In this document: piece after piece, positions 12,363-64,000 of the stretch
Layout: the number at the start of each line of letters is the position of its first letter
Numbering within the stretch: the first letter of the stretch is position 1
IMG/VR virus record: IMGVR_UViG_3300029305_004519
Span: 13,541 to 77,540 of that record
Direction: 5' to 3' (one strand)
DNA length: 64,000 nucleotides
Source: a virus
Translations under genes and position numbers: made by a program
The notes under the pieces: generated by a model
Database searches by the model: none
Told to the model about the DNA's origin: nothing
Seen by the model: the letters and a program-made list of their open reading frames with translations, nothing else

Positions 12363-13556
12363 TTAGCTATTCCCGCGAGTTTTATTCAGGCCAAAATCAT
12401 ATGTTTGATAGAGGTCGATATAAAACTTCTCCTTTTCATTTAATTCATTGATACTACATTTTTCTAATACTTCAAAAGTAAAGTTATCAATACCTTTTTC
12501 TCTTGTGAATGCATAGAGTTGACTTGTTACAGGGGTGTCGATACCCAAGCTACATTTAACATGCGTTACCCAACGCTCTTTGATATCTTTAGCTTGTCCG
12601 ATGTATGATATGCCAGAGTCAATGTGGGTAATTTTATATATTCCACTTGCGCCCACCGCACCTACGCGCGCCGCAAGGTCATTGACTTTATCTCTATAGA
12701 ATGTAGACCATATAAGCATTCGCAAAGGTCTTGCCTCACGCAAATTATATTCAATGCTTTGAAGATATGCAACATCCCGTTTATCAGCTTCATTAATTTG
12801 AAGGGTATAAAATGTCGCTTGATTTTTAATTTCTTCTTCACGGAGTTGTGCCTCCATTGCGGCGGCCTTAGTTGCACGAATTTTTTCTAGCTCTTCACGA
12901 ATTGAATCTAAATCAGCGCGCATTGCCGCCTCTTCTTCTTGCAGCTCTTTAGACATTGATTGTTGCTTATCATAAAAGAGTTTTACAAGAATATCTAAAT
13001 CTTGACGCTGTTCTTCGATTAAACCATTTTCTCTAGCATCTAATTCTAACATTCTAGTGAAATAAAGCTCATCTAGCTTTGCGATGTCATTATTAAACTC
13101 CTGTTCTCGCTTTTGATATTCATAATCAAGAGTATCACAATATTGCTCAAATGAGGTGCGAGCAGCTGCCTTTAAACTACCTGACATCTCATCTATTGAG
13201 CGATTTAAAGTGGCGATTTGCGCCTCCACTCCTGCTTTTTCAATTTGCTTATTTTGAATTTCATTTATTAACAATAATTTCTATTGAGTTAATTGATTTA
13301 ATTCGTCATAAGAATTTTTTGTTTTTTTACAGTTCTCTTCATACTTTTGAGAAATTTCATTGTTAGATTTTATCAATAAGTCATTTTGAGCTTCTAGGCT
13401 TTTGCGAGTTGCATGTAATGACTAATTAAGCTCTTCCAGTTTCTAATTTTCTTCTGCTACATAGTGATTTGCTTTTATAGTTGTGGCTTTAGCCCATATT
13501 CCGTAAGCAAGGCCGCCTACGCCAAGAAGAATTGATATTACACATATGATTATCAT
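12363..13556 (-). CDS. GIY-YIG endonuclease with N-terminal TM/coiled-coil region and three in-frame TAG codons
   Basis: C-terminal GIYKITHIDSGISYIGQAKDIKERW (GIY-YIG). Reading up from the ORF-track start, the frame stays open through TAGs: MIIICVISILLGVGGLAYGIWAKATTIKANHYVAEEN[TAG]KLEELN[TAG]SLHATRKS...LNQLTQ[TAG]KLLLINEIQNK. Total 398 codons. Confidence 0.5.
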
Positions 13557-13860: not shown

Positions 13861-14185
13861 TGCCTTAAATCTCCTTTTATTTCTTAATATTTAGCAGTAT
13901 TTATCTCTGCTATCGTAGTAATATAATTATATAATAAAATTTATTTATTGTCAAGAAGATTCTTATTATAGATATAGTCCTCAATAGCAAACATCTCAAT
14001 CATTGTGCAACTTTCAATGATGTTAGTCATTTCCTCTTCTGCTGCAGATTTATCAATGCCTGCTTTGATTTGCTTTTCAAGTTCTACAATGCGCTTGATT
14101 TTTGGCACAAGGCGCTTGTGCATTGCTTTGCGTTGCTCCCTATTCATAGGTGCATCTGCTTTTTCCGTTATGTTGTAATTTGCTT

Positions 14186-15019
14186 TCATTTCATTAACTC
14201 CAATAATTCTTCTTCAGTAATAATCGGAATGCCAAGTTCCTTTGCTTTAAGATTCTTTGATGATGTACTATCAATATCATTATTGACGAGATAATCAGTT
14301 TTTGAAGAGACCGATGATGTTACTTTACCACCTGCGGCGGTCACTGCTGCAGAAAGTTCATCTCGGTTTTTCCAGATGTGGACTCGACCTGTAACGCAAA
14401 AGGTTTTACCCTCAAGCGCATTTCCAGAATTTTCCAGCGCGCTTTCATTTGTTTTAAAGGTAATAATCCCCTTTTCTACAAGGCTATCTGCTTCCGTATA
14501 GTCAAAGCTTAAAATCGCATCTGCTTTCTCTGGTCCAATACCATCAAGCGACTCAAAATCAAAGCCATTCGCAACAGCATTTCTAAATTCTTCATAAGTT
14601 TCAAAAGTATTTGCAAGTTTCTGCGCATAGGTCTTACCTATAAGCGGAATGCTAATTGCGCTTAAATACTGTGCAAGAGTAGTCTCGCGTGCTTTCCATA
14701 TAGAGTCAATGAGCTTAGTTACGCTTTTAGGTCCGAAACCAGGCTTACTAGCCCAGAGATCAGCTACTTCACCGAGTGCGCAAATATCGCTTATAGAAGA
14801 TACCCAGCCCCAGTCGATAAGTTTCTCTAAAGTTGCTTTAGACAAGCCTTTAATATCAAGACCTTTCTTTGATACAAAATGTTCTAATTTGTTAATCAAT
14901 TTTCCACTGCAATCAGGATTATTACAAAATAATTCTTGTGTGCCGCTATCGCTCGTTTTGATAATTGTATTTCCGCCGCAAATAGGACAAGTCTTTGGTA
15001 TTTCAATCCATTCAATCAT
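14186..15019 (-). CDS. ligA: NAD-dependent DNA ligase, C-terminal half (Zn finger, HhH, BRCT)
   Basis: CPICGG...CNNPDC zinc finger, HhH region, then BRCT-like GKTFCVTGRV...ELGIPIITEEELLELMK. Own RBS and ATG. Confidence 0.8.
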   Translation of the reverse strand: MIEWIEIPKTCPICGGNTIIKTSDSGTQELFCNNPDCSGKLINKLEHFVSKKGLDIKGLSKATLEKLIDWGWVSSISDICALGEVADLWASKPGFGPKSVTKLIDSIWKARETTLAQYLSAISIPLIGKTYAQKLANTFETYEEFRNAVANGFDFESLDGIGPEKADAILSFDYTEADSLVEKGIITFKTNESALENSGNALEGKTFCVTGRVHIWKNRDELSAAVTAAGGKVTSSVSSKTDYLVNNDIDSTSSKNLKAKELGIPIITEEELLELMK

Positions 15020-15983
15020 ATTTTCTTTCCTTTTTTACAATAAATTTACTTTTATTAATATCTAAATCTTCTAAGGTTAATTGTTCAAGATGAGTATAAG
15101 GAATTCTAATTAATATAATATTATTATCCATACACCATTTATTCTTAAAAAGATCTCGAGCATTAGTTTTTTGAAATTGCTCTTCTGCGACTTTTTTAGA
15201 TATGCCTCCAAATTGTCGAGGAGTAAAATGCTGTTCCCCATCATATTCAATTAAATATTTATTTTCAACAAAAAAATCATAATATAAATGATAATTCGTA
15301 TCTGGGTAAACACAAGTATCAAAAGTTTTCTATTTTTCAAAAGTAATATTATTTTCTTTTAAAAGTTTTTCAATACAGTATTCTCCTTTTGATTTTCCTA
15401 AGCACCCACAAGAAGAAGTGTGACCTCGTCTAAGATTTAACGTTGAAACTTGGATTTTATTATGATCAGGACATGAGCATTCACATAGCCACATAATTCT
15501 ACCATTTGGATCACGTTCTTCCATTTTTTCTATAACTGTTAATTTACCAAAATGGGATCCAACAAGATTTAATGCTCTTTGTTCTCCCAATTTCTTCATG
15601 CGCTCTTTGGTAATACAACCACAAGATTTAGTACCTCCATTTTCTCCTTTTTTCAGCTAATCAGTTGGTACTTTAGTAATATTTCCACAATCACACTAAC
15701 ATTCCCATATCATACATCTTTTAGGGGTTTTTTCTCCAGTTGGACGTAAAGCCACTAATCGTCCGAATCTTTGCCCTGTTAAATCTTCAAATTTAGGTTC
15801 ATGTTTTTTACATCCACAAGAAGTTACTCGCTTTGCATTTAATTCTCCAGAAGTTACTTCTTTTTGATTTCCACACTAACATTGACAAAGCCAAACAACA
15901 GCTCCCCCTTTTCGTTTGTCTGTTTTTTCAATTACTGTTAAATAACCAAACTACTCTCCAATTAAATTTTTACAAGCTGGCAT
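15012..15983 (-). CDS. Homing endonuclease (Zn-ribbon repeats plus Vsr-like/DUF559 nuclease domain) with five in-frame TAG codons, inserted inside ligA
   Basis: RBS AAGGAGAAAAG and ATG at 15983. Frame open for 324 codons through TAGs at GE*FGY, QC*CGN, EC*CDC, TD*LKK and FEK*KTF. C-terminus has YDFFVENKYLIEYDGEQHF...ARDLFKNKW...ILIRIPY (DUF559/Vsr-like). Ends with TGA overlapping the ligA-C ATG. Confidence 0.5.
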
Positions 15984-17103
15984 CGTTTATCTTTTCTCCT
16001 TCTGCTACCTGCGGAATAATTTGATTAGCGAGGTAGACTTTAATTTTTTGTCCTTTATAAGGTCTACCTAATATTAAATTTAAAGTAGATAAATTATGCA
16101 AATTTGCCCTTGAAATTATATTTGAACCCGTATCTACATCTTTGTAAACTGCAACTGGAGTCAAGACACCAGTTCTACCCATAGACCATTCAATGTCTAA
16201 GAGTTCAGTCTCATATTCCTCGTCATAGAATTTATAAGCAAGACCGCCGCGAAAATGATGTTCTGTTCTACCTGCTGCTTGGTATTCTTTAATATTATCC
16301 CACTTAAAGACAATACCATCAATAGGATAGTCATTTAAAGAAGATAACCCTTTTATAGATGCTTCAATATATTTTTCAGTCTCACCTCCGCAAAATGGAA
16401 CACTAATAAAGCTTAAACTTTGCAAATGAGTAAGTTTGGCGCTTAAAGTAGTCATATCAATATAATTAAATCCTTGAATAATATCCCAAGCTACAAAAGT
16501 CAATTCTCTTTTAGCGCACTCATTACTATCCAAAAGTCGAATACTACCAGCTGCAAAGTTACGCGCATTAGCATGCTTGCCTTTGAATTGCTCAAAAGTA
16601 TCGAGATCGCAGATAACTTCTCCATCTACTACAAGTGTATCTTTATAAGGAATAATTTGTGGAATAGAGGGGAGCACTCGCGCATTATGGGTAATATCTT
16701 CGCCCTCAACGCCGTCTCCTCTTGTCTCGGCGCGAATTAGTCTACCTTCTTCATAAGTCAAACGACAAGTTAAACCGTCAAGCTTAAGCATTGCAATCCA
16801 TTCTTTATCACCGATAAAAGATTTAATTTCTTCAATATCTTTTGTCTTATCAAGTGAAAGCATAGGTTGATATTCATGCTTTACTTTTTTAAGCTCAGAT
16901 ACTACTTCATATCTAATCTTCTTAGTAGGTGAATTTTCAAATTCGATACTTGGAAACTCTTGTTCAAGAGCTTTAAGTTCCAAATAAGCTTCATCCCATT
17001 CTTTATCTGTTATCTTTGGAGTCCCAGCATCATATTGGTCTTGATGATAATTAAGATATTCAATTAATCTTCGCATTTTTTGCGCTACATCAAATTTCTC
17101 CAT
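15970..17103 (-). CDS. ligA: NAD-dependent DNA ligase, N-terminal half (adenylation plus OB domains)
   Basis: KxDG motif MLKLDGLTCRL and ...IIPQVAEG (OB end). Stops just before the Zn-finger region, which is encoded by 14186-15019. Confidence 0.8.
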   Translation of the reverse strand: MEKFDVAQKMRRLIEYLNYHQDQYDAGTPKITDKEWDEAYLELKALEQEFPSIEFENSPTKKIRYEVVSELKKVKHEYQPMLSLDKTKDIEEIKSFIGDKEWIAMLKLDGLTCRLTYEEGRLIRAETRGDGVEGEDITHNARVLPSIPQIIPYKDTLVVDGEVICDLDTFEQFKGKHANARNFAAGSIRLLDSNECAKRELTFVAWDIIQGFNYIDMTTLSAKLTHLQSLSFISVPFCGGETEKYIEASIKGLSSLNDYPIDGIVFKWDNIKEYQAAGRTEHHFRGGLAYKFYDEEYETELLDIEWSMGRTGVLTPVAVYKDVDTGSNIISRANLHNLSTLNLILGRPYKGQKIKVYLANQIIPQVAEGEKINDASL

Positions 17104-22467: not shown

Positions 22468-22543
22468 GCTTTAAGTATGGCTGGGAGTGTGGGATTCGAA
22501 CCCACGCATAACCGGGTTAGAGCCGGAGGCCTTAGCCGCTTGG
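22468..22543 (-). tRNA. Amber suppressor tRNA, anticodon CUA, tRNA-Gln-like body (tRNA-Sup(CUA), predicted Gln)
   Basis: Hand-folded canonical 76-nt cloverleaf: AGGGAGT/ACTCCCA acceptor (A1·A72 mismatch, G2-C71, G3-C70), G73, encoded CCA, D-arm GCCA/AGGC, anticodon loop C-U-C-U-A-A-C (U33, C34 U35 A36), T-arm GTGGG-TTCGAAT-CCCAC. Shares TCGCCAAGCGG...CCCAGCCA features with the tRNA-Gln(UUG) at 42331-42408. Confidence 0.8.
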
Positions 22544-22602
22544 CGAACTCCCTATTGATTACATATAAATTATAATCAAAATTTTTGAAAAAATCAATTA
22601 TT

Positions 22603-28559: not shown

Positions 28560-29480
28560 TTATACCTCCAAACATTCTCTCAGCAATCCTGCGCGTAGCG
28601 GATTGCGCAGTTTGCGCAAGGCCTTTTCTTCAATCTGTCTAATGCGCTCTTTAGATAGCTTATATTCATTTCCAATTTCTTCCAAAGTCTGAGCTTTATG
28701 ATTATTCAAACCATAGCGACGTGTCAGCACATCTGCTTCTCTATTGTCAAGAGTTGATAATACTTGTTGAATACGCTTAGAGACTTCTTCTTTGAAAATG
28801 TCTTCAATTGGAGATTCATTATTTTCATCTGCTACTAAATCGCCAATAGTTGCATCATCTTCATCATTGATACTTTGATCAATAGAGATTGGGTCTTTAA
28901 CAATAGCTCGCAACTCTTTAATTTTCTTTTCTTCAAGTCCCATATGATTTGCAAGCTCTTGTGTGGTAGGTTCTCTATTCAGTACTTGACAGAGTTCATT
29001 AGTGGCACGACTCAGTTTACTAAGTTGCTCAATAACATGCATAGGTACTCGAATGGCTCGCGATTGCTCAACGACAACTTTAGAGATACTTTGTTTAATC
29101 CACCATGTAGCGTAGGTAGAAAATTTATAACCTAAAGTATAATCCCACTTATCTACGGCGCGCATTAATCCAATATTTCCCTCTTGAATTAAATCAAGAA
29201 ATGGCATATTGGTACGATGTAAATATTTTTTTGCAATACTTACTACCAAACGCAAATTTGCTTCAATCAGTTTATTCCTTGCTTCAATACTTCCATTTGC
29301 AATTTGGGCGCCTAAAGCTTGCTCTTCTTCGTAGGAGAGCAAAGGAATTTTACTAATTGAGTTCATATATGCTTTTGTTGCGTCTGGTAAAAAACCCATA
29401 TTATCAAAATCTACATCAATACTATTTTCTTCCTCAAGAATCAAATCTTCCGCTTCTAAAATCATTACATTATTTTCCAT
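28560..29480 (-). CDS. Sigma-70 family RNA polymerase sigma factor (regions 1.2, 2, 3 and 4 all present)
   Basis: ...[14 protein letters not shown]...[19 protein letters not shown]...[10 protein letters not shown] (region 2) ... [28 protein letters not shown] (region 4.2 HTH). Confidence 0.8.
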
Positions 29481-40443: not shown

Positions 40444-41228
40444 GCATATTAAGTTTTCAATAATCGCATAAGAAAATATATAATCACTTTAACGAGCCTT
40501 CACTCTACATCGTTTCTGAAGTGCGTTATTAACATATGTTCACGGGAGGCTGAGCAATGGGTAGCGATCCCACGCTTCTCCAATGGTTCTCTCTATCTTG
40601 CCCCGATAGGAAAGCAAGTAAATTAAACTACCACACCCTCGATCAATACTAAGGGAACTTTCACCGAGCTTCAGCATTAATTCTAAAATACCTGTTTTCA
40701 TCAAATTTGAAGCTATCTTTTATGCCCGATACGGCTACTCGCACCAGCCAAATCTGTTATAGTTTGTTACCAAACATCAACGGGAACGCTTATTTTTGAG
40801 ATACCTAGTTGATTATTCGCTTCATAACGGTTTCTCACGCCGCCAACTTTAGGTGGTATGCATCACTGCAGGGACTCTTCTCGCGCCAGATTCCTGACTG
40901 TTGTTTACGCTAAATCATCAATATGCACCATTATCCGCAACCTTTGTCAGGCATACTCGTTTATTCAGTATATTCACGAGTTTTATTTACTTTAGAGCAG
41001 TATCCCACTCTGTTTCTTTCCCCGCGGATCTGTCCTAGCCATCATGCAAGATGTCTGCACTAGGATGTTAAAGGTTTATATATTTTCTTATGCAATTATC
41101 AATGAACTTTTTTCTTTTGATTACTTAATCATTATATCATAAATTTTTTAAGTTTTCAAGAGAGAGGTGAGGCTTTAGGTCAGCCGACCGCACATCTGTT
41201 GATTGCTGGAACTTTTGCTCTTCCAAAA

Positions 41229-54160: not shown

Positions 54161-54544
54161 TTATTCTGCATCTACGGGAAGAGTCCAAGCAGTCTTGGTC
54201 TTACCCTCTTCAGTCTTTACCTTGGTCTTGGAAGCTTGACCAGCCTCTACAAGATTATTCAACTTAGCCTGAATCTTAGCCACAGTCAACTCGCCATCCT
54301 CGTTCTCAAAGTGAGCAAGAATATCTTCGCGAGTCTGAGGAGTCTCGCTCAAAGTGCTCAAAACAGCAGCCTGAAGCTCATCTCCGATAGCACGCTTTGC
54401 AGCTGCGCGCTCTCTTGCCTTTACATTCTTCTTCTCCAGAAGAGCCTTCTCATTTTCGCAGTAAGCAACGATAGTCTCGTTATCTGCGCATGCCTCGATG
54501 ATCATATCGAGAACCATTGCCTTGGTGATCTTAGTGTTTTCCAT
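54161..54544 (-). CDS. Hypothetical protein, member of a three-paralog family (with 61386-61808 and 62425-62808)
   Basis: The N-terminal ~40 aa and overall layout are shared by the three proteins. Confidence 0.4.
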   Translation of the reverse strand: MENTKITKAMVLDMIIEACADNETIVAYCENEKALLEKKNVKARERAAAKRAIGDELQAAVLSTLSETPQTREDILAHFENEDGELTVAKIQAKLNNLVEAGQASKTKVKTEEGKTKTAWTLPVDAE

Positions 54545-54747
54545 TTTTTGTTTCTCCTTAAAATATATTTATTTTTTATTTGGTGTTATTATTATACCAA
54601 AAATTTTTTAATTTTTCAACTAAAGGCGGCCGCGCCTGCAAGTAACTTTTATTACTTGTATAAGATTTCTTTTTTCCTTATCTTACATTTATATTATATC
54701 AAAAAATTTTAGAATTTTCAAGTGAGCAGATTAGATCTCCTTTATAG

Positions 54748-55898: not shown

Positions 55899-56147
55899 GG
55901 TAGGCGCCTACACATTCTTCAGCGCAATATTCCATCTCCTCTTGGCTAGAAATGTCTACATTGTGACACATATATTCATCTATTACTCCATTCAAAAAAG
56001 AATTTCCAACGGTTACCTTAATTACTCCCATAGCTTTTATCCTTTCTTACTTTCTTTATTTTACATATATATTTTATCATATATTTTTCAAAAAATCAAT
56101 CAAATGACTTAAAAGTGGCACAAAGCGATGGTTGCGCGCCTTAGTTG

Positions 56148-56190
56148 ACTACTTTTTAAAAATATATTATAATATAAGTAACTAAAGATA
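56148..56190 (+). promoter_or_regulatory. Plus-strand sigma-70-type promoter (TTGACT-N17-TATAAT) at the start of the plus-strand gene block
   Basis: ttagTTGACTactttttaaaaatatatTATAATataag, followed by an RBS AAAAGGAGAAAAA and an ATG at 56208. Confidence 0.55.
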
Positions 56191-56207
56191 TAAAAGGAGA
56201 AAAACAG

Positions 56208-56672
56208 ATGGTATTTGGTGGATGTTTGATTATTTGCGTGTTAATTGTACTTGGTATATGGCATGGAAAAACTTTGATAGACTATAAGCGTTTATAGGAC
56301 AATTGCGGTGATAATGGGGTCATTGGCCCAGATCATATCATTTTTGTTGCTCTTGATCAAAGTAAGTATATGCAGGATTTAGCGCAGCGATGTATTTAGG
56401 CTCGTAAAAAAGTATAGATTCAAATATTTAAAACGCAAACAACGAAAGATGGGCGGCAAGATATTTTCTTTGAAAATGGAGATATTCTAAGTATTATTAC
56501 TTATGGGGCGCAAATCGCTCCGTTAAGTAAGCGTGATATTGGTATATACACGCATCGCTTTTTCTTTGATTATAAGCTACCTGAGGGCGCAGAGCGCGCC
56601 GTAATTAAAGATTTAGGTTTATTGGATTATGTATTAGACATCGGTATTTGTACCGAGAAAAGTGGGGGTTAA
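56208..56672 (+). CDS. Membrane protein (N-terminal TM helix) with three in-frame TAG codons
   Basis: MVFGGCLIICVLIVLGIWHGKTLIDYKRL[TAG]DNCGDNGVIGPDHIIFVALDQSKYMQDLAQRCI[TAG]ARKKV[TAG]IQIFKTQ..., then TAA. 155 codons. Confidence 0.5.
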
Positions 56673-56674
56673 AT

Positions 56675-57037
56675 ATGGATACTTGGAAAAAAACAAATGA
56701 AGCTTGGTTCGGAGATACTTTTGATAGAGCTTCCATTTGTGCTTATAATAGTGCTACTACGGATGCTGTTAACGGTGTCTCTGTAACAAAAGGCGTCGAT
56801 AACAATGCAGTTTTTACTTGCACAAATACTAATAATTGGGATAATGCAACTCTTCTTGTTGGAAATAATGGAGAGATAGCTTATAAGGATTATGCGGTTA
56901 AAAGTGATGTTGATTCTATTTGCAGTCAGTTAAAGAAACTACAAGAGCAAATAGATGAATTAAAGGTACGCTCAATGGTTACTTCAAACTTGCGTTCGGC
57001 GCTTAAAACATTGCAATATAAAAGAGAGGTAAAATAA
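56675..57037 (+). CDS. Hypothetical protein (possible virion or tail component)
   Basis: MDTWKKTNEAWFGDTFD..., translationally coupled to the upstream gene. Confidence 0.45.
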   Translation: MDTWKKTNEAWFGDTFDRASICAYNSATTDAVNGVSVTKGVDNNAVFTCTNTNNWDNATLLVGNNGEIAYKDYAVKSDVDSICSQLKKLQEQIDELKVRSMVTSNLRSALKTLQYKREVK

Positions 57038-57369
57038 TGTATTATAATGGATCAAGTTTTATATATAATAGACCAACAGCAAGTAAAGTTGAAAAAACTG
57101 AATACGCTGAGATGGTACATGTCAAAGCTCTTGCAACAAGAGTTGCGGTTTTAGAAGATAGGGAAAGTAAAATAGTCAATCAAGTGGCAACAGATAAAGC
57201 AATTCTAGAGGATGCTATTGATCAAATTAGATATAATTATCAAGCAATAAATGATTTGCGCTATGAGATTGATAAGTTAAAAAATGCGCTAAGCGTTGCT
57301 AAAAAACGTCGTAGGGTAACGATTTGCGCAGGCGATCAGAAAGTAGAAATTATCCGCGTTAATAATTGA
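57037..57369 (+). CDS. Hypothetical coiled-coil protein
   Basis: 110-aa ORF; ATG overlaps the upstream stop. Confidence 0.45.
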   Translation: MYYNGSSFIYNRPTASKVEKTEYAEMVHVKALATRVAVLEDRESKIVNQVATDKAILEDAIDQIRYNYQAINDLRYEIDKLKNALSVAKKRRRVTICAGDQKVEIIRVNN

Positions 57370-57615
57370 TAAAAGGTTGCTAAGGGCAAAGATTGGCGTC
57401 TCTTAAACCAACACGATTTTGTTACGATTTTAATTGATTTTGCTTTTGGGAAAAGGCGGAATGACAACAGATTGTTGTAGATTAATTAAAAAACCTCAAG
57501 CATACGAAAAGTAGAAAAATTTTAATAGCTTTATAAATCTTGGGCAAATTCAAGCAAAAAAGTTGTTGGAATTTTTATAATAAGATAGAAAAGATAAAGA
57601 AAGAGAGGTTTTATA

Positions 57616-58413
57616 ATGACTGTTGAAGAACTTTCTGATAAATATAATATGTCAGTAAGTAGTATTAAGAATTCTTTTCCACGAACTCAAGCTTCTATTT
57701 TGAAAAAACATGGAGTAAAAATTGTGAAATAGGGTAGAGGAGATAATGCTTAGTATTATGAGGAATGGGTCGATGACCAGCGCGCCTTAACAATGTATGA
57801 AGAAACAAAAGGAACGGTAATGATTAGTAGTGAACAATTATCAATGGTGAATTGGGACTTCCATGTTTTTTTAGGTATTATTACAACTCCAATGTTAGTT
57901 TTTAGAGGAAGTTATGAGGATTTTTTAAGATATACTTCTATCCCTGTTAATAATAATAATATATGGGAATTAAAAATGGCGCTTTAGCATCTTGTTGCGC
58001 GCGATTATATTAGCTATTAGATAGATAAAACTAATGAGAATTATTTTGTAGCCGCCCTTTGGTATTAGACGGAAAAAGATATGGAAATTGGAATAGAAAT
58101 GGTGCGCACTTGTAAATAGTTAGCGGAGTCTTATAATAAAAGAAGTTGGGTGCCATTATTAAAAACTTGGTTGGGTGTTTAGATGATGTCTAAGCATTAG
58201 CCTTATACAGTTGCGCAATTAGCGGAGATTACTGGGCTAAGCGATTATGCAATAAGAGAAAGTACAAAGATACTAGGAGATTGCGCAGTGTTTTAGACAT
58301 CGCGCGCATATAAATCTTATTAGAAATGTATTGGTACAAATGTAGAGTTTATTCATGAGGCTTTTTATGATTTGCCAGAAGATGGAGAAAAGAGGAAAGT
58401 GCCGAAGAAATAA
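57616..58413 (+). CDS. HTH-containing protein encoded with 11 in-frame TAG codons
   Basis: RBS AAAGAGAGG, ATG at 57616. 266 codons open through 11 TAGs to a TAA at 58411. Contains HTH-like segments SVSSIKNSFPRTQASILKKHG and PYTVAQLAEITGLSDYAIRESTKIL. ORF-track 57793-57987 is an internal fragment. Confidence 0.5.
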
Positions 58414-58630
58414 TACAAAGTTGTTGGAATTTAATACTTTTCTTAAGGATATATAAATAATATATAATGTTTAAGTAAAGTATTAAATCCAAACGAAAGT
58501 TGTTTATTATCGACCATGAGTTTAAGTAATTTATTAAATTCCAACAAATTTGGTTTAAAATGTCGAAAGATGGACTGCCCTAGCGAAGCGACGGGCAGGA
58601 CTTCTTGAGGAATGGAGGTGAAATAGATAG

Positions 58631-58840
58631 ATGGATGAATTTTTAATATTAGCTATGGCGCAAATTTTTGAAATACCAGAAGTAATAATGAAGGATACAG
58701 AAGTGTCTGAATGGTTTCTTGAAGAATTAACTAGATTGTTAGAAAGAGTAGAAGTGCAAACGTATTTAAAGAAATTCATGGAAAATGAACATTGGAAATA
58801 TAAAAGATGGTATGGGAAAATAGAAGAAGAAAATGAGTAA
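58631..58840 (+). CDS. Hypothetical small protein
   Basis: 69-aa ORF. Confidence 0.35.
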   Translation: MDEFLILAMAQIFEIPEVIMKDTEVSEWFLEELTRLLERVEVQTYLKKFMENEHWKYKRWYGKIEEENE

Positions 58841-59028
58841 TGATACTTGAAAAGGTGGAATTGTAATAAAGTATAATAAAGTGCGGGTGTGTGGTGGCAC
58901 CTAATCCAAACCCACTTCACTACACCCTCGTCTCCGTTATCCTTATGGAGATTAATATCTCTTATTTGATTTATAATAAAATATATGATATAATATATAT
59001 AGAAAATGGAAAGGAGAATATAAATAAT

Positions 59029-59349
59029 ATGAATATTCTTGAATTGCTGAAAAATGGTAAAACAGTAGAAGATATTACTGAAGACTTTTTTGCTGCTGTA
59101 GAGGAGTCTCAAGCAGCTTATGAGAAGTGGAAGGAAGAGGAAGAGGAAAAGAAGCGCGCGGCCGCTCAAAGAGCGCTGGAGCTAGAGTATAAGAAATCTA
59201 AGCAAGAGCAGGCGCGTAAGGCCTTGGGCGCCGCAATTGTTGATTACTTCTCTTCTCTTGATATCAAGGTAACTGAGAAGACCTTGGAAGATGTAGAGTG
59301 GATCATCGATGCGCTGCCGCAGATTAAGGTGGTGAGAACCTGGAGATGA
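59029..59349 (+). CDS. Hypothetical coiled-coil protein
   Basis: MNILELLKNGKTVEDITEDFF... (internal Met of ORF-track 58891-59349, with RBS GGAAAGGAGAA). Confidence 0.4.
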   Translation: MNILELLKNGKTVEDITEDFFAAVEESQAAYEKWKEEEEEKKRAAAQRALELEYKKSKQEQARKALGAAIVDYFSSLDIKVTEKTLEDVEWIIDALPQIKVVRTWR

Positions 59350-59633
59350 GCAATATGAATGAAGGTGTTATCAAGGAAGGCCGCGCCTATATTATCAATG
59401 GTCTCTTGGCTTATGGCGAAGGGTTTGGCGTATTGGCGCCGGAGGAGATTCCTCAGGAATTGATGGAAGACTTGGATGAAGGGCTTGAGACTATTGAAGC
59501 GGCGATCCCGGTTTTGATCAGCTTATGGGAAATGAGTAATAAACTTAAGGACAAGGATGAACAACAGACATTCCTAGAGTTTTTAGCAGAAATTCTGAAA
59601 GATAGACAAGATAAGCATGGATTATTTGGTTAA
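59346..59633 (+). CDS. Hypothetical protein
   Basis: 95-aa ORF. Confidence 0.4.
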   Translation: MSNMNEGVIKEGRAYIINGLLAYGEGFGVLAPEEIPQELMEDLDEGLETIEAAIPVLISLWEMSNKLKDKDEQQTFLEFLAEILKDRQDKHGLFG

Positions 59634-59636
59634 AGG

Positions 59637-59672
59637 GAGGCGCTTGAGGGCGCCTTTCCTTATTTTTACAAT
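59637..59672 (+). terminator. Rho-independent terminator ending the plus-strand block
   Basis: GGCGC-ttgagg-GCGCC followed by TTTCCTTATTTTTAC. Confidence 0.6.
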
Positions 59673-60189
59673 ATTTCCAAATTTTGGAAGGGCGCATCGT
59701 ACACTATCCCCGAGTCATGGCTTCCCTTCATTTCTATTATAATTATATCATAATTTTCACTAAAAATCCACTTATTCTCTTGACTCTAGGCGCATAATAT
59801 CATTTTTTCGTTTCTGGGATCAAATTTTAGCACTATTGAAAGAACAAAAACAAGTAAAATCTGTTAAAACTATGCGTTTTTGATTAAGAATTCACAGTTT
59901 ATGCGGAAAAATGAATAAAAATGCTAATTATAGGAAAAAATAATGGAAATCAAACAACCAAAAACCGCGGCGCATATATGCGAAGGTCTAGCCTAGCGCG
60001 GAAGACGGGGGCTTCCCGATGGTCAGCGGCCCGCGCAGAAGTTGGGTATTGCGGGAAAATAGGTGAAGATTGAAACATTCAGATTTCGAATCGCATATGT
60101 GTGAAGAGATAGCTGGAGTGTGGAAACGGCAGGCGACGAACGCCGCCGTGCCGAAATTATGAACAGATTGTGAACACGTTTGGCGCAGA

Positions 60190-60226
60190 TAAAAAACAGA
60201 GGGCTTTACCCTCTGTTTTCTTTTAG
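60190..60226. terminator. Bidirectional hairpin terminator at the boundary with the high-GC early-type block
   Basis: AAAAAAC-AGAGGG-cttta-CCCTCT-GTTTTCTTTT. Confidence 0.55.
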
Positions 60227-60387
60227 TAACGTTTGGCGCTAATCCAAAAACCAAAACGAGCCATCTACGCAAAACTTAAAGAGTATATTTCCAATTCCTA
60301 TCAATGGGCCATTGGGTGCATTTAGCTCTTCATAATTTTCTTTTGGAAGGTGTTTTTCACACCATGCTTTCAGCTCTTCATATGCAG

Positions 60388-60588
60388 TCATTGTTTTAAT
60401 ACCCCCATATATCCAAATTTGATATTTAATATTTCGGTCACATCATTGCGCGCCTCAATATCGGCTTTAAATTCTTCTTTGGCTTGCAACCGCGCCTCGT
60501 AAGGATTGTTTGCTTCAACGGCATAACTCTTTGTAATAGAAGAAACGCACTCGCCCGTGACTTCAACTTCATATACATGTAATTTCAT
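60388..60588 (-). CDS. Hypothetical small protein
   Basis: 66-aa ORF. Confidence 0.4.
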   Translation of the reverse strand: MKLHVYEVEVTGECVSSITKSYAVEANNPYEARLQAKEEFKADIEARNDVTEILNIKFGYMGVLKQ

Positions 60589-60836
60589 ATTTCTTTTCCC
60601 TCTGCATTATAGATTTTTGTATCTCCATCCTCGGTTTCAATGTTATAACCGCAATACTGGACAGAAAAATTATCATCCCACTCTGCGCCACATTGATTGC
60701 ACCTCATATGCGCATATGCGCACATATCCTCGAACCCACTGCTTACTTCGGTGGTATCGTCACTGTGGCAAATAGGACAAATCCATTCGCTTGTTTTAGC
60801 CATTTTCTTTTTCCTCTCTTTCGTTTTATGTAGCAA
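60585..60836 (-). CDS. Zinc-ribbon small protein
   Basis: CPICHSDD...CNQCGAEW. Confidence 0.4.
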   Translation of the reverse strand: MLHKTKERKKKMAKTSEWICPICHSDDTTEVSSGFEDMCAYAHMRCNQCGAEWDDNFSVQYCGYNIETEDGDTKIYNAEGKEI

Positions 60837-60843
60837 GGGGTTT

Positions 60844-61308
60844 TCACCCCTTGCTTTCCTTTTGCGGTCTCTGCCGAATAAGGTCTACCTTGAAACTGTC
60901 TGTACCGACCTTAAAGGTAATCAGTTTACCCTTTTTCTCGATATTTACCTCTGTTGCTTCAAGGCTTGGGAGTAAGTCTGCGATTGCTTGGATAATGCCC
61001 TCTTTGACTTTATCCTCTTTTACCACTCGCTCTCGCTGGGTTTTCTGCTTGACTTCGGCTTTTGCTTCATGGATGGTTGCGGTAATGCGGTTTTCTTTTG
61101 CCTTTGCGGTCAAGGCTTGCTCTTCCTCATTCTCGATATAGTCATGGTCGAATAGCCATAAGTCAATAGCCTCGGCTTTGGAGTTGCATACCGCCATATT
61201 CCGTGCAATTTCGGCATTGGGGATATTTACCACTTTGCCACTTGCCAACTTATAGGGGGTATATGCACTTGCCATTGGTAACACCTCTCTTTCTTGTCCT
61301 CTTGACAC
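60844..61308 (-). CDS. Hypothetical protein (early region)
   Basis: 154-aa ORF directly downstream of early promoter 61310-61342. Confidence 0.45.
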   Translation of the reverse strand: MSRGQEREVLPMASAYTPYKLASGKVVNIPNAEIARNMAVCNSKAEAIDLWLFDHDYIENEEEQALTAKAKENRITATIHEAKAEVKQKTQRERVVKEDKVKEGIIQAIADLLPSLEATEVNIEKKGKLITFKVGTDSFKVDLIRQRPQKESKG

Positions 61309-61309
61309 T

Positions 61310-61342
61310 TATATTATACCACATTGTGCGCTAAATGTCAAG
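61310..61342 (-). promoter_or_regulatory. Early-class promoter. Minus strand reads TTGACA-N17(TGg)-TATAAT.
   Basis: Reverse complement is CCTCTTGACATTTAGCGCACAATGTGGTATAATATAAG, a sigma-70 consensus, flanked by the AT-rich aaaaatttttcaaaaaattttt. Confidence 0.65.
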
Positions 61343-61385
61343 AGGTTTGGGAAAAATTTTTCAAAAAATTTTTGGGGTTGGGGGC

Positions 61386-61808
61386 TTATGCCCCCTCTCC
61401 CTCAACCTCGGTATCCTCGCCATACGCAAGCGCATAATAGGATACCTTCTTCACCTTGGTGTTCACAAAGTCCTTGGGATTCTTGGTGAAAATTGCGGTA
61501 ATCATCTGCGAGGACACCTTATGTCCGTCTGCCTTGACATAGGCTTGGATGCGGTCATCTTTGAGAATGTCTCCCACGGTCATGCCGACCTCTTCCTTGC
61601 ACTCGGCAAGAATATCCTTAACGATTTCGGCAACCGCCGCCGCATCTTTCTGTGCAGGGGTTTCCTTACCGCTCTTGGACGATTTGCGCGACAAGAGTTC
61701 AATCTCATGCGCCATAACATCTGCCCACTCGGTTTTGCCCTGTTCGGTGAGGAACGCCATAATGCCCTCAAAATGTTCTCTTTTGGTAACTCTGTTCTTT
61801 TCTGCCAT
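61386..61808 (-). CDS. Hypothetical protein (paralog family member)
   Basis: 140-aa ORF. Confidence 0.45.
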   Translation of the reverse strand: MAEKNRVTKREHFEGIMAFLTEQGKTEWADVMAHEIELLSRKSSKSGKETPAQKDAAAVAEIVKDILAECKEEVGMTVGDILKDDRIQAYVKADGHKVSSQMITAIFTKNPKDFVNTKVKKVSYYALAYGEDTEVEGEGA

Positions 61809-61865
61809 GATTCTCTACCTCATTCTTTCTTTTAGTCAGTAGGGATTGGCTTTCCCTTACTGCTC

Positions 61866-61899
61866 TTATATTATACCACATTTCGTGGGTTTTGTCAAG
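61866..61899 (-). promoter_or_regulatory. Early-class promoter (TTGACA-N17-TATAAT on the minus strand)
   Basis: Plus-strand cttatattataccacatttcgtgggttttgtcaagg. Confidence 0.65.
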
Positions 61900-61995
61900 G
61901 GGTTTTTTGAAATTTCTTCAAAAATTTTCGTGGAAAGGGAAACGAAATAAGTTTTTACGCGCGCCTTCGTCCTTGCTTTCCCCCCTTGATTACAT

Positions 61996-62030
61996 TAATA
62001 TTATACCATAAAAATAAAAATTTGTCAATA
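61996..62030 (-). promoter_or_regulatory. Early-class promoter
   Basis: Plus-strand taatattataccataaaaataaaaatttgtcaatagg. Confidence 0.55.
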
Positions 62031-62158
62031 GGTTTTGGGAAATCTAAATGCACAAAGTTTGGGCAGTTTTTGGTAGGAAAATTGTGCAACTTGCACAGAA
62101 ACGCACAAATCGGCTCAAACGCGACCGCGCTTGAGCCGGCAAAAAGAAAACAAGGTGT

Positions 62159-62368
62159 TTAAACACCTTGTTCAACTTTCTTAATTCCGAAAACTTTGCA
62201 CACCTTGCAAAAGGCTTTGCGAGTTTTCTTTTCTGCTTTTTTGATTTCCTTCATAGGAATTTCAAAATCTTCGTGTAATTCAAACTCTGCTTTGTAACAT
62301 TCTTTTACATAAATTTCTGCGATAGTGTCCATAAGTTTGTCTGCGCTTGATTGCTTAATACTTTTCAT
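62159..62368 (-). CDS. Hypothetical small protein
   Basis: 69-aa ORF. Confidence 0.4.
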   Translation of the reverse strand: MKSIKQSSADKLMDTIAEIYVKECYKAEFELHEDFEIPMKEIKKAEKKTRKAFCKVCKVFGIKKVEQGV

Positions 62369-62424
62369 TTTTTTCCTTCCTTTTAGTTTTATGTATGGGG
62401 CGGTTTAAACCGCCCCTTGTGCGC

Positions 62425-62808
62425 CTACTCCGCAAGGGAGAACAGAACATCCTTGCCCTTTTCGGTGCGGATTACCTCACCCGAGCCGTCGGGGTTCTTG
62501 TCGCTCGGGGGAAGCAACTTACGAAGCATAGCATTGATCTTGGACGAAGAAAACTTGGTGCCATTTGCGGCGTTGACCGCTTCCATGATTGCATTGCACT
62601 TCATGGGGGAATCGGAGTTGCAGAGGACGGATACAATCATATCCATGACCTCGCGGTGTTCTTCATTCTTCTTGGTGTCGGTCTTGGAAGTCTTGTTTTC
62701 CAACTGCGCCAACTTCTTCTCGCACATTGCAACAACATTTTCGTTGTCGGCCATAGCCGCCATGACTTCCTCGTAAAACTGCTTTTGAGTGTAGGTTACC
62801 TTTGCCAT
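62425..62808 (-). CDS. Hypothetical protein (paralog family member)
   Basis: 127 aa, MAKVTYTQKQFYEEVMAAMADNENVVAMCEKK... Confidence 0.45.
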   Translation of the reverse strand: MAKVTYTQKQFYEEVMAAMADNENVVAMCEKKLAQLENKTSKTDTKKNEEHREVMDMIVSVLCNSDSPMKCNAIMEAVNAANGTKFSSSKINAMLRKLLPPSDKNPDGSGEVIRTEKGKDVLFSLAE

Positions 62809-62878
62809 AATTTTTTTCCTCTCTCGCTATTGGTTGCGACCCTTTATTTTTATATTCAGTAGGTTTTCCCTTACTGCT

Positions 62879-62913
62879 CTTATATTATACCGCACTTTTG
62901 TGGATTTGTCAAT
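62879..62913 (-). promoter_or_regulatory. Early-class promoter
   Basis: Plus-strand cttatattataccgcacttttgtggatttgtcaatagg. Confidence 0.65.
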
Positions 62914-62958
62914 AGGTTTTTGAAAAATTTTTTTATTTTTTTTATGGGGAAAGAGGTT

Positions 62959-63657
62959 TTACCCTCTTTCCTCAAAGTCGACCACAGTGCCATCAAGGCG
63001 AATCCAACCGCCACGGGAAACATACTCGAAAATGTTTTGCCCTCGCTTGCCACACTCACACAAAATGCGCAACTCCCAATATACATCGGATAGGGCGGTG
63101 TGTTCCTCAACAAAATCCACATTTTGATTGAGGTACTTGGTTACACCCTCAACAGAGGTCGGGAAGAATTTTCCGCTTTTGGTTTTGAGGTCATATGCAA
63201 GACAGAAATCTTGATATTCTTTGCTTGTGCAGATATTCCAGTATGCAAAGCCCCAAAGGTCGAATACTTTAATTTTTTCAAGCGGATTGGGAAGTCCGTA
63301 TGCGATTGCGGTCTTGGCAAATTTGTCGGTATCAAACTGACAGTTGTAGGCATAGCCAAACTCAACTCCGTAGCGGTCAAGGTCTCGCTCCAACTGTTCA
63401 AACACTTGCTTTTCGGTGCGCTCGATTGCGCCCTTATGCTTGACATTGTGCGCCATTACCGCCAACTTATCATCACCTACGAACATATCGTTACGCATCC
63501 ACATGGTATTGCGGTAAATATCTCGCATGAGGTAGTCTCGCTTTACCTTGGTGCGGTAGGTGAAAGTGGTTAAGTCAAGGTCTACAATCATGTAGCCTAC
63601 ATTGAGTAGCGATTGGGTTTTACACCCAGCCGTTTCGGTGTCGAACACAATAATGTT
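62959..63657 (-). CDS. DEDDh 3'-5' exonuclease (DnaQ-like)
   Basis: MNIIVFDTETAG (Exo I) ... EEHTALSDVYWE (Exo III, H-x4-D). Confidence 0.65.
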   Translation of the reverse strand, partial: NIIVFDTETAGCKTQSLLNVGYMIVDLDLTTFTYRTKVKRDYLMRDIYRNTMWMRNDMFVGDDKLAVMAHNVKHKGAIERTEKQVFEQLERDLDRYGVEFGYAYNCQFDTDKFAKTAIAYGLPNPLEKIKVFDLWGFAYWNICTSKEYQDFCLAYDLKTKSGKFFPTSVEGVTKYLNQNVDFVEEHTALSDVYWELRILCECGKRGQNIFEYVSRGGWIRLDGTVVDFEERG

Positions 63658-63718
63658 CATGTTTTTCTGTTTTCCTCTCTTTCTACCATAGTGGGTAGCC
63701 CTCGCTCCCATCTCGGTA

Positions 63719-63754
63719 CTTATATTATACCACATTTCTGCGGTTTTGTCAAGA
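63719..63754 (-). promoter_or_regulatory. Early-class promoter upstream of the exonuclease gene
   Basis: Plus-strand cttatattataccacatttctgcggttttgtcaagagg. Confidence 0.65.
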
Positions 63755-63771
63755 GGTTTTGAAAAAATTTT

Positions 63772-63978
63772 TTAAATTTTTTTCAAAACTTCAAGAACTT
63801 CAAAGATTTCGTGAGGCGCATATGCTTGCCCATTTCCCGCCCATTCTTCACGATTGCGCTTTTCGTCATCGAACAAAATACCGATAGTTTCAGCAACTTG
63901 ACTTTTGGGCGTGCCATATGCTACAATATGAATTTCGTCAAAATGCACAGAACCGAGGTGTTCAGCAAGCCATGCCAT
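63772..63978 (-). CDS. Hypothetical small protein
   Basis: 68-aa ORF. Confidence 0.4.
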   Translation of the reverse strand: MAWLAEHLGSVHFDEIHIVAYGTPKSQVAETIGILFDDEKRNREEWAGNGQAYAPHEIFEVLEVLKKI

Positions 63979-64000
63979 TTTTACAGCGGATACAAGCGCA

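Follow-up and report, generated by a model that had tools for sequence, protein, structure and literature searches.

Does a phage that reads the stop codon TAG as an amino acid keep a set of genes in the standard genetic code for the start of infection, and can such a set be recognized by its promoters? The question is raised by one end of a 64,000-nucleotide stretch of viral DNA (positions 13,541 to 77,540 of IMG/VR record IMGVR_UViG_3300029305_004519; hereafter the window), in which a block of short minus-strand genes begins at about 60.2 kb. An earlier note on this DNA had described a compositional and regulatory switch at that point and had proposed that the early genes stay in the standard code while the late genes are recoded. 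For alternatively coded phages, a published code-switch model (Borges et al., bioRxiv 10.1101/2021.08.26.457843) proposes that standard-code genes, including the suppressor machinery, come to expression first. In this paper we analyze the composition, promoters, gene content and TAG usage of the block in the window, in a contig that extends it, and in six related phages. With a probability of roughly 0.7, we read the block as an immediate-early host-takeover module, of the kind carried by the Bacillus subtilis phage SPO1, that is compatible with the standard code and resides in a phage recoded for TAG.

The segment of the window from 60.19 to 64.0 kb is the promoter-distal 3.8 kb of a larger minus-strand module of small genes. 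Exact-protein look-up retrieved a Joint Genome Institute (JGI) contig, L007, which is 100% identical to window positions 57934-64000 and extends 9.7 kb beyond them, so that the block runs from 60.2 to 73.7 kb in window-equivalent coordinates, at least 13.5 kb in all. This extended block holds 35 called genes (3,200 codons) on the minus strand. As the earlier note had stated, the genes are short, with a median of 78 amino acids (aa) in the block versus 134 aa elsewhere (p=2e-5), and the coding density is 0.72 versus 0.93 because the gaps are taken up by promoters, hairpins and leaders. Look-ups of the same kind yielded five diverged relatives (L013 and L015-L018, with a paralog protein 56-76% identical) and one distant relative (L019, exonuclease ~50% identical). 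All six keep the same layout, that is, TTGAC[AT]-N17-TATAAT promoters on the gene strand and a convergent block at one end, with 13-16 promoters per block in L013 and L015-L018 and 19 in L019; at the far end, the blocks of L015 and L019 adjoin divergent genes. The DNA of 56-64 kb had no match among 50,697 GenBank phages, and neither the exonuclease nor a 46-mer from the window brought up a relative in scans of IMG/VR.

The five block promoters in the window all match the sigma-70/sigma-A consensus at 12 of 12 hexamer positions with a 17-bp spacer, and their -60 to -36 regions are 64-88% A+T. All five had been described as perfect TTGACA-N17-TGnTATAAT with A/T-rich UP elements, and this stands for the hexamers, the spacers and the A/T tracts; the TG at -15/-14 is present in four and missing at 62884-62912. 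Across the 64-kb window there are 18 sites with at most one mismatch, versus 0.8 expected, and the only perfect site besides these five is 13926-13954. The extended block as represented by L007 has 17 such sites, 12 of them perfect and all on the gene strand, versus 0.17 expected. The distance from promoter to start codon is mostly 28-105 nt, rising to 281 nt for the four promoters that are followed by leaders without an open reading frame (ORF). When 16 pairs of orthologous promoters from L007 and L013 are compared, the -35 hexamers (96/96) and the -10 hexamers (96/96) are identical at all 192 of 192 positions, while spacers are 81% identical and downstream sequence 50-55%. This conservation of the hexamers points to purifying selection and is the strongest evidence for working promoters. 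The block is divided into numerous short transcription units, and each unit has a near-perfect sigma-A/sigma-70 consensus promoter before it, with TTGAC[A/T], a 17-bp spacer, usually TGnTATAAT and an A/T-rich upstream tract.

Promoters outside the block are of a different make. A scan for TTGAnn-N17-TAnAAT over the window and its extension gave 52 sites versus 2 expected. Within the block the -35 boxes are TTGACA (13) or TTGACT (4), and the spacers are mostly of mixed composition. The ~30 plausible promoters elsewhere comprise 18 with TTGATT, 6 with TTGAAA and 6 with TTGAC[AT]; the TTGATT promoters, all 18 of which lie outside the block, have a nearly invariant A/T spacer such as TTGATTTTATTAAAAAAATATGATATAAT, the TTGAAA class also has an A/T spacer, and the spacer of the outside TTGAC[AT] class is purely A/T. 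TTGACA is nearly exclusive to the block, since it occurs in 13 of the 17 block promoters and in 1 of the ~30 outside (p=2e-7), and the regulatory switch at ~60.2 kb is therefore sharper than had been claimed. Many units of the tRNA array are also preceded by TTGATT-type promoters, and the distant relative L019 has promoters of this type outside its block, one of them before its sigma gene. A lysine at the position of the phage sigma factor equivalent to R584 of sigma-70 was considered as the cause of the TTGATT box and ruled out, because L019 has arginine there yet has the same TTGATT promoters. At the edge of the tRNA array a full-length ROOL RNA (40474-41088, minus strand; Rfam RF03087, 175 bits) lies behind a TTGAAA-type promoter at 41131-41159.

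The rise in GC content reported by the earlier note is also borne out, from 0.32-0.36 at 49-59 kb to 0.43-0.44 at 60-64 kb in 2-kb windows. GC at third codon positions (GC3) is likewise higher, with a per-gene median of 0.43 in the block versus 0.30 elsewhere (p=9e-12; p=3e-4 for the nine window genes alone); taken as one segment, the block has a GC3 of 0.46 versus 0.29-0.35 in each other segment and 0.31 elsewhere overall. The climb in GC begins at ~59.95 kb, inside a non-coding stretch, and the tRNA array (40-49 kb) and the segment at 31-33 kb have an equally high bulk GC. Bulk GC is thus shared with other regions, but the GC3 of its genes sets the block apart from all other segments. The shift in GC is seen in the five closer relatives, and the shift in codon usage is confined to some four-codon families (GGA, for example, at 0.19 in the block versus 0.35 elsewhere).

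Genetic code 15, in which TAG encodes glutamine, is indicated for this phage by a suppressor tRNA with anticodon CTA, by PHROG profiles that align across the TAG positions of the Sak4-like and HNH genes, by the residues found opposite TAG in the orthologues of a relative (Q in 6, E in 2 and N in 1 of nine cases), and by a TAG that the relative L016 has at a glutamine conserved in five orthologues. Every ORF of the block is complete in the standard code and needs no read-through of TAG, in agreement with the earlier note, and a search of the gaps found no plausible TAG-containing ORF. Sense TAG is present in 0 of 3,200 codons of the extended block versus 29 of 15,007 elsewhere (p=0.006) and 13 of 974 in the adjacent convergent block (p=6e-9). 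TAG serves as a stop in 3 of 35 block genes versus 0 of 76 elsewhere (p=0.03), a comparison in which the code-15 definition of ORFs outside the block would read a TAG stop as sense and so affects the 0 of 76. The three genes are 60239-60391 and 62425-62808, two of the nine block genes in the window, and 2593-2985 of contig L001 in the extension; two of the stops directly precede hairpins. The L013 orthologue of 60239-60391 has its TAG at the same place, and read-through of 62425-62808 would add 11 aa across the hairpin at 62397-62416.

Past the TAG stop of the L001 gene the frame continues for 90 codons without TAA or TGA into the next gene (L001 2985-3256, window-equivalent 68553-68824), which is long for an intergenic region. 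An in-frame fusion across this stop (L001 2983-2985) was considered and taken as chance, because the frame crosses a promoter and looks non-coding.

Under the host-takeover reading, the module would be transcribed at DNA entry by the unmodified RNA polymerase of the host, carrying the primary sigma factor, and standard-code translation by host ribosomes would follow. Because the module would be transcribed first by the host polymerase, its translation would have to be possible ahead of the phage suppressor tRNA. Promoter classes that act later would then switch on the suppressor tRNA, with the TAG-containing genes following. The promoters and their conservation, the gene content, the compatibility with the standard code and the TAG stops are direct observations; timing, the polymerase and sigma factor that serve each class, and the host are all read here from sequence, as are the labels early and host-consensus. 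The regulatory half of the earlier reading is right and well supported, and the half that concerns the code is plausible and supported in part.

A number of observations weigh against the host-takeover reading, and several of them are shared with an alternative in which the block is early but its lack of TAG is unrelated to timing, sense TAG being rare and patchy, gathered in a handful of genes (homing endonucleases, for example) and in the convergent block, and the 35 short genes escaping it by chance or through their higher GC. ORFs called in the standard code are free of TAG by construction, and their lack of it is tautological; the fair tests, used here, are whether standard-code ORFs tile the block, whether a TAG-containing ORF lies in the gaps, and how the count compares with the rest. 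The in-frame TAG statistics that the earlier note had proposed are significant for the extended block, but in the window part alone (~900 codons) the absence of sense TAG is not (p=0.41). Much of the remaining sequence is itself poor in TAG, with none in 3,851 codons at 27-40 kb, one in 3,083 codons at 17-27 kb, and only 8 in ~10,400 codons outside the block; of the seven TAG codons in TTGATT-type operons, five are within one HNH homing endonuclease. The rest of the window cannot be called late, as it includes replication genes, tRNAs and a sigma factor, and its TAG-bearing genes are replication, recombination, homing-endonuclease and other genes without a recognized function. The perfect consensus promoter at 13926-13954 drives genes that contain TAG. 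Sense TAG is also tolerated within the block of one relative, where L016 2708-3013 has an in-frame TAG at a glutamine conserved in five orthologues; the promoter of this gene, with the orthologous one here (window-equivalent 67189-67217), is the sole block promoter that has a pure A/T spacer and lacks the TG. The term early draws on promoter sequence and gene content only, the shift in GC3 is weak in L019, and an interpretation of the block's GC3 as independence from the phage tRNA array was unsupported (codons matched by an exact tRNA, 39.8% in the block versus 37.7% elsewhere). The relatives were binned mostly with metagenome-assembled genomes of Clostridia/Eubacteriales, and the binning is mixed; it is weak evidence, of a kind that fits the promoter consensus. 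Even so, an escape from TAG unconnected with timing seems rather unlikely to us, given the contrast of the extended block with the rest and with its immediate neighbor. Six phages together supply ~18,900 block codons with one clearly internal sense TAG, that of L016, and TAG is still a stop in block genes here. After correction, one or two TAG stops or near-C-terminal TAGs are found in each of the six relatives L013 and L015-L019, although these are weakened as independent support because some of the contigs were evidently gene-called with TAG as sense.

Two further explanations set the code aside and concern the origin of the block or the reader of its promoters. The block might be a horizontally acquired, fast-turnover accessory island of the moron type, with its high GC3 a mark of foreign origin; the MazF-like and Lar-like genes, the insertions and deletions by which gene content varies among relatives, and the preponderance of ORFans all lean that way. 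An island of this sort is improbable for a block that is syntenic among relatives at 70-90% DNA identity with the same boundaries, whose promoters form one strongly conserved family, and whose promoter layout is kept in L019 with hardly any shift in GC; variable, ORFan-rich early modules are, moreover, present in known phages. The block promoters might instead be read mainly by the phage sigma-70-like factor, as a middle or late class, with the TTGATT promoters used first by the host enzyme. The phage factor resembles a primary sigma, with all four regions and canonical residues in regions 2.4, 3.0 and 4.2, including those that contact the -35 and -10 boxes, and in principle it could read the block promoters too, which counts further against an assignment to the host enzyme. 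Its gene and the suppressor tRNA are themselves behind TTGATT-type promoters, and these must fire without the phage sigma at least once because the sigma gene sits behind one. We nevertheless give this order of events little credence: TTGACA-17-TGnTATAAT at full consensus with upstream A/T tracts is the strongest known form of primary-sigma promoter in Bacillota; the anti-restriction, toxin and nucleotidase genes, the small ORFans and the many short units match known early modules; and the use of TAG as a stop within the block accords with expression ahead of suppression.

A wider coupling of promoter type and genetic code across the clade, in three tiers, can be offered only tentatively. The first tier would consist of full sigma-A consensus promoters and genes in the standard code, for which TAG is still a stop. 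The second would be a nearly TAG-free regulon of TTGATT and TTGAAA promoters with A/T spacers, bringing the suppressor tRNA, the tRNA array, the ROOL RNA and the sigma-70-like factor, and the third would be the TTGAC[AT] operons with A/T spacers, in which sense TAG piles up. TAG codons per 1,000 codons number 0 for the block, 0.9 for TTGATT, 0.4 for TTGAAA and 4.6 for TTGAC[AT] with A/T spacer (the last versus the other non-block classes, p=4e-6), in a grouping by nearest upstream promoter that assigns operons crudely and was defined after the data had been seen, a further point on the side of caution. Two observations agree with this grouping: in four phages an A/T-spacer TTGACT promoter stands at the head of the convergent TAG-rich block, whose orthologues in relatives contain 10-19 TAG per 1,000 codons, and the TAG-containing gene of L016 has a promoter of the third-tier type.

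The recognized products of the block are a DEDDh exonuclease, a 5'(3')-deoxyribonucleotidase-like protein, a MazF-like toxin, a Lar-like restriction alleviation protein and two small winged-helix-like paralogs; the remaining genes are ORFans. The Lar-like, MazF-like and deoxyribonucleotidase-like products are all encoded in the extension or run into it, the last matching PHROG 2643 (5e-13) and falling slightly under the Pfam cut-off for NT5C. Features of the block and those to which it is compared are collected in the table.

Table. Positions of block features and related elements, in window coordinates.
Position	Strand	Feature	Basis or remark
22478..22553	-	Suppressor tRNA, anticodon CTA	Own TTGATT-type promoter 22569-22597
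28560..29480	-	Phage sigma-70-like factor (regions 1.2, 2, 3, 4)	TTGATT-type promoter
54161..54544	-	Third paralog, outside block	TTGAAA + A/T-spacer promoter 54591-54619
56145..58413	+	Head of convergent TAG-rich block: TTGACT + A/T-spacer promoter, followed by genes that hold 3 and 10 sense TAG	Promoter and TAG counts
60193..60219	.	Bidirectional intrinsic terminator at junction of minus-strand block and convergent plus-strand block	11-bp stem, 5 GC pairs
60239..60391	-	Last gene of block, 50 aa, TAG stop, no function recognized	ORF; read-through would add 10 codons across terminator hairpin
60388..60588	-	66-aa ORF, no function recognized	ORF list
60585..60803	-	72-aa zinc-ribbon-like protein	CxxC...CxxC pattern; Pfam zinc-ribbon matches sub-threshold only
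60844..61275	-	143-aa ORF, no function recognized	ORF list
61313..61341	-	Promoter TTGACA-17-TGgTATAAT, A/T-rich tract upstream	12/12 match; hexamers identical in L013 orthologue
61386..61808	-	Paralog family member, 140 aa	hhalign versus family profile (15 homologues), E=5e-9, 96% probability
61837..61862	-	5'-untranslated region (5'-UTR) hairpin common to units of 61386-61808 and 62425-62808	TATAATATAAGAGCAGTAAGGGAAA...CTACTG, kept in L013
61870..61898	-	Promoter TTGACA-17-TGgTATAAT	12/12 match; L013 orthologue
62000..62028	-	Upstream tandem promoter TTGACA-N17-TATAAT	~100-nt ORF-less leader (61899-61999) before next promoter
62148..62173	-	Intrinsic terminator after gene 62159-62368	11-bp stem, then TCTTTTTG
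62159..62368	-	69-aa ORF, no function recognized	ORF list
62425..62808	-	Paralog family member, 127 aa, TAG stop	30 metagenomic homologues all ending near ...SLAE
62884..62912	-	Promoter TTGACA-17-TATAAT, without TG at -15/-14 (CGG there)	12/12 match; L013 orthologue has TG
62959..63660	-	DEDDh (DnaQ/RNase T-like) 3'-5' exonuclease, 233 aa	PHROG 20187 (1e-18), PHROG 192 (4.5e-9)
63724..63752	-	Promoter TTGACA-17-TGgTATAAT, A/T-rich tract upstream	12/12 match; L013 orthologue
63772..64000	-	5'(3')-deoxyribonucleotidase-like gene, 3' part (full length 151 aa)	Crosses window end; complete in L007 9509-9964

The exonuclease named by the earlier note is, by its motifs and modeled fold, a true DEDDh enzyme. 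Across 23 sequences, at identities as low as 44%, the five catalytic residues D7, E9, D110, H187 and D192 do not vary, nor does N106, and all three exonuclease motifs, Exo I (DxE), Exo II (Nx2-3FD) and Exo III (Hx4D), are present. Its AlphaFold model has a predicted local distance difference test score (pLDDT) of 93.9 and matches the folds of RNase T, DnaQ and ExoI in the PDB at E=2e-6 to 5e-4 (RNase T, 2e-6). The motifs, with their histidine, and the fold are those of DnaQ/RNase T (DEDDh) exonucleases; in contrast to these, the protein matched no Pfam model at an E-value of 0.01 or better, and the more than 240 members of its family come from metagenomes only.

The three-member paralog family of the earlier note is upheld by two routes. 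BLASTP links 54161-54544 to 62425-62808 (E=3e-7; hhalign, E=1.5e-5), and 61386-61808, for which pairwise BLASTP against the paralogs was not significant, is joined to them by the profile; it also has its promoter type and its 5'-UTR hairpin in common with 62425-62808. The AlphaFold model of 62425-62808 (pLDDT 83.5) consists of helices and a C-terminal beta-hairpin, and its best Foldseek matches are the winged-helix domains of Fur, ArsR, MecI and PadR, which are weak (E=4e-3 to 8e-2, template modeling score 0.45-0.49). The two block paralogs are putative winged-helix proteins, with no winged-helix match at the sequence level in Pfam or in a PDB profile search. Neither the exonuclease nor the paralog profile had a significant match in a sequence search of the PDB, and 60388-60588 is without a Pfam or PHROG match. 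Directly after the paralog gene in the block of L013 there is a tRNA-like element (L013 10437-10507; Rfam tRNA, 44 bits; abnormal anticodon loop in ARAGORN) that has no counterpart here.

In known phages, the early promoters of T4, T5 and T7 are clusters of near-consensus host sigma-70 sites, often A/T-rich upstream and with an extended -10, that serve small early genes with hairpins between cistrons. These phages and their hosts are unrelated to the present one, in which the -10 of the later classes is still sigma-70-like and the differences lie in the -35 and the spacer. SPO1's host-takeover module occupies 12.4 kb and has 26 small early genes behind strong sigma-A promoters (PMC6873191). 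SPO1 (genes 37-60) and the block described here have in common a length of ~12-13 kb, 26-35 small genes, many short operons, strong sigma-A promoters and strong ribosome-binding sites, and both phages encode their own sigma factor or factors for later classes. The phage sigma here is of the primary type, unlike gp28 and gp33/34 of SPO1, and TAG recoding is peculiar to the present phage. The SPO1 block lies in the terminal redundancy, whereas the termini here lie outside the visible sequence, and the far end of the block borders on divergent genes in L015 and L019. The likeness to SPO1 is one of analogy and not of membership, since PHROG scans of the block proteins detected no homology to SPO1 proteins.

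The bidirectional hairpin terminator that had been placed at the start of the block is present at 60193-60219 and is terminator-like on both strands, because a run of A precedes the stem and a run of T follows it. A hairpin is kept at this position in five relatives, with a different sequence in two. Two genes of the block, 61386-61808 and that of the exonuclease, have their TAA stops in the loops of GC hairpins (61380-61395 and 62948-62971), and the inter-cistron hairpins at 60832-60855 and 62397-62416 have no U tract on the coding strand; these four may be processing or stabilizing sites rather than terminators. The ORF-less leaders that follow four block promoters (window 61899-61999; L007 2089-2352, 7129-7276 and 9361-9453) are 90-260 nt long and start with a GT(A/G)T(C)AAGGGG-like sequence, and the leader of 263 nt is ~96% identical between L007 and L013, exceeding the adjacent genes. 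An Rfam search of 59.6-62.2 kb and of L007 and L013, at a permissive E-value, matched no part of the block, the leaders or the junction to a known RNA family. The motif TTGTGCAA occurs on the coding strand 8 times in the 13.5-kb block versus 4 times in the other 60 kb, at window positions 62049 and 62082 and at window-equivalent 64.4-71.7 kb (L007). Its usual place is -40 to -55 of one promoter subclass, at times as an inverted repeat, and it is a candidate operator.

Beside the terminator, the GC-rich non-coding stretch 59945-60190 is 81% identical in L013 and alignable in five relatives. It has seven base pairs with compensatory changes, and its G-U pairs favor the minus strand of the window; it perhaps forms a structured RNA where the two convergent blocks meet, and had no match in Rfam. 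A unit of ~100 nt at ~59640-59750 (minus strand), with a TTGATT-like promoter and a terminator at 59635-59658, is present in all six phages compared, carries a conserved GAC(C/T)NGGGG(A/G)TAG motif within a covarying stem, and looks like a small RNA gene.

The window as a whole is phage-like, with no structural genes among its genes, which lie on the minus strand save at 56.1-59.7 kb. It encodes both subunits of a gyrase-like type II topoisomerase, a DnaB-like helicase, a primase, an NAD-dependent ligase, an RNA ligase, NAMPT, a Sak4-like ATPase and the sigma-70-like factor, together with 24 tRNAs at 40-51 kb. The NAD-dependent DNA ligase (14186-17103, minus strand) is split into an adenylation half (15970-17103) and an HhH + BRCT half (14186-15019), between which lies an HNH homing-endonuclease ORF with five sense TAG (15012-15983). 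Two further minus-strand genes encode proteins that are unusual for a phage and have GC above that of their neighbors, an 855-aa protein with a major-vault-protein shoulder domain (30716-33283; Pfam, 1e-23) and a 512-aa SPFH/flotillin-like protein (37476-39014).

Host-takeover blocks that are early and carry consensus promoters are, in themselves, ordinary in phages, and the present one is a clean example of a proposed idea and not a new kind of system. With the published code-switch model it has in common a suppressor tRNA, a subset of genes in the standard code, and recoded codons in particular gene sets, which here are replication, recombination, homing-endonuclease and other genes without a recognized function, structural and lysis genes lying outside the window. 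It goes beyond that model in that the standard-code set is tied to a distinct promoter family kept across relatives. The published case for a code switch rests mainly on which genes hold recoded stops; here the standard-code set coincides with one promoter family, the suppressor tRNA is behind a second, and most sense TAG is behind a third. The host-takeover reading predicts that block transcripts would appear first, without phage protein synthesis, and that the three block proteins ending in TAG would acquire tails of 10-12 residues late only (or, for L001 2593-2985, a long product). Should the three-tier coupling hold, the sequence of its promoter would be enough to predict whether a gene may be recoded, and the timing of the code switch would be directly testable.

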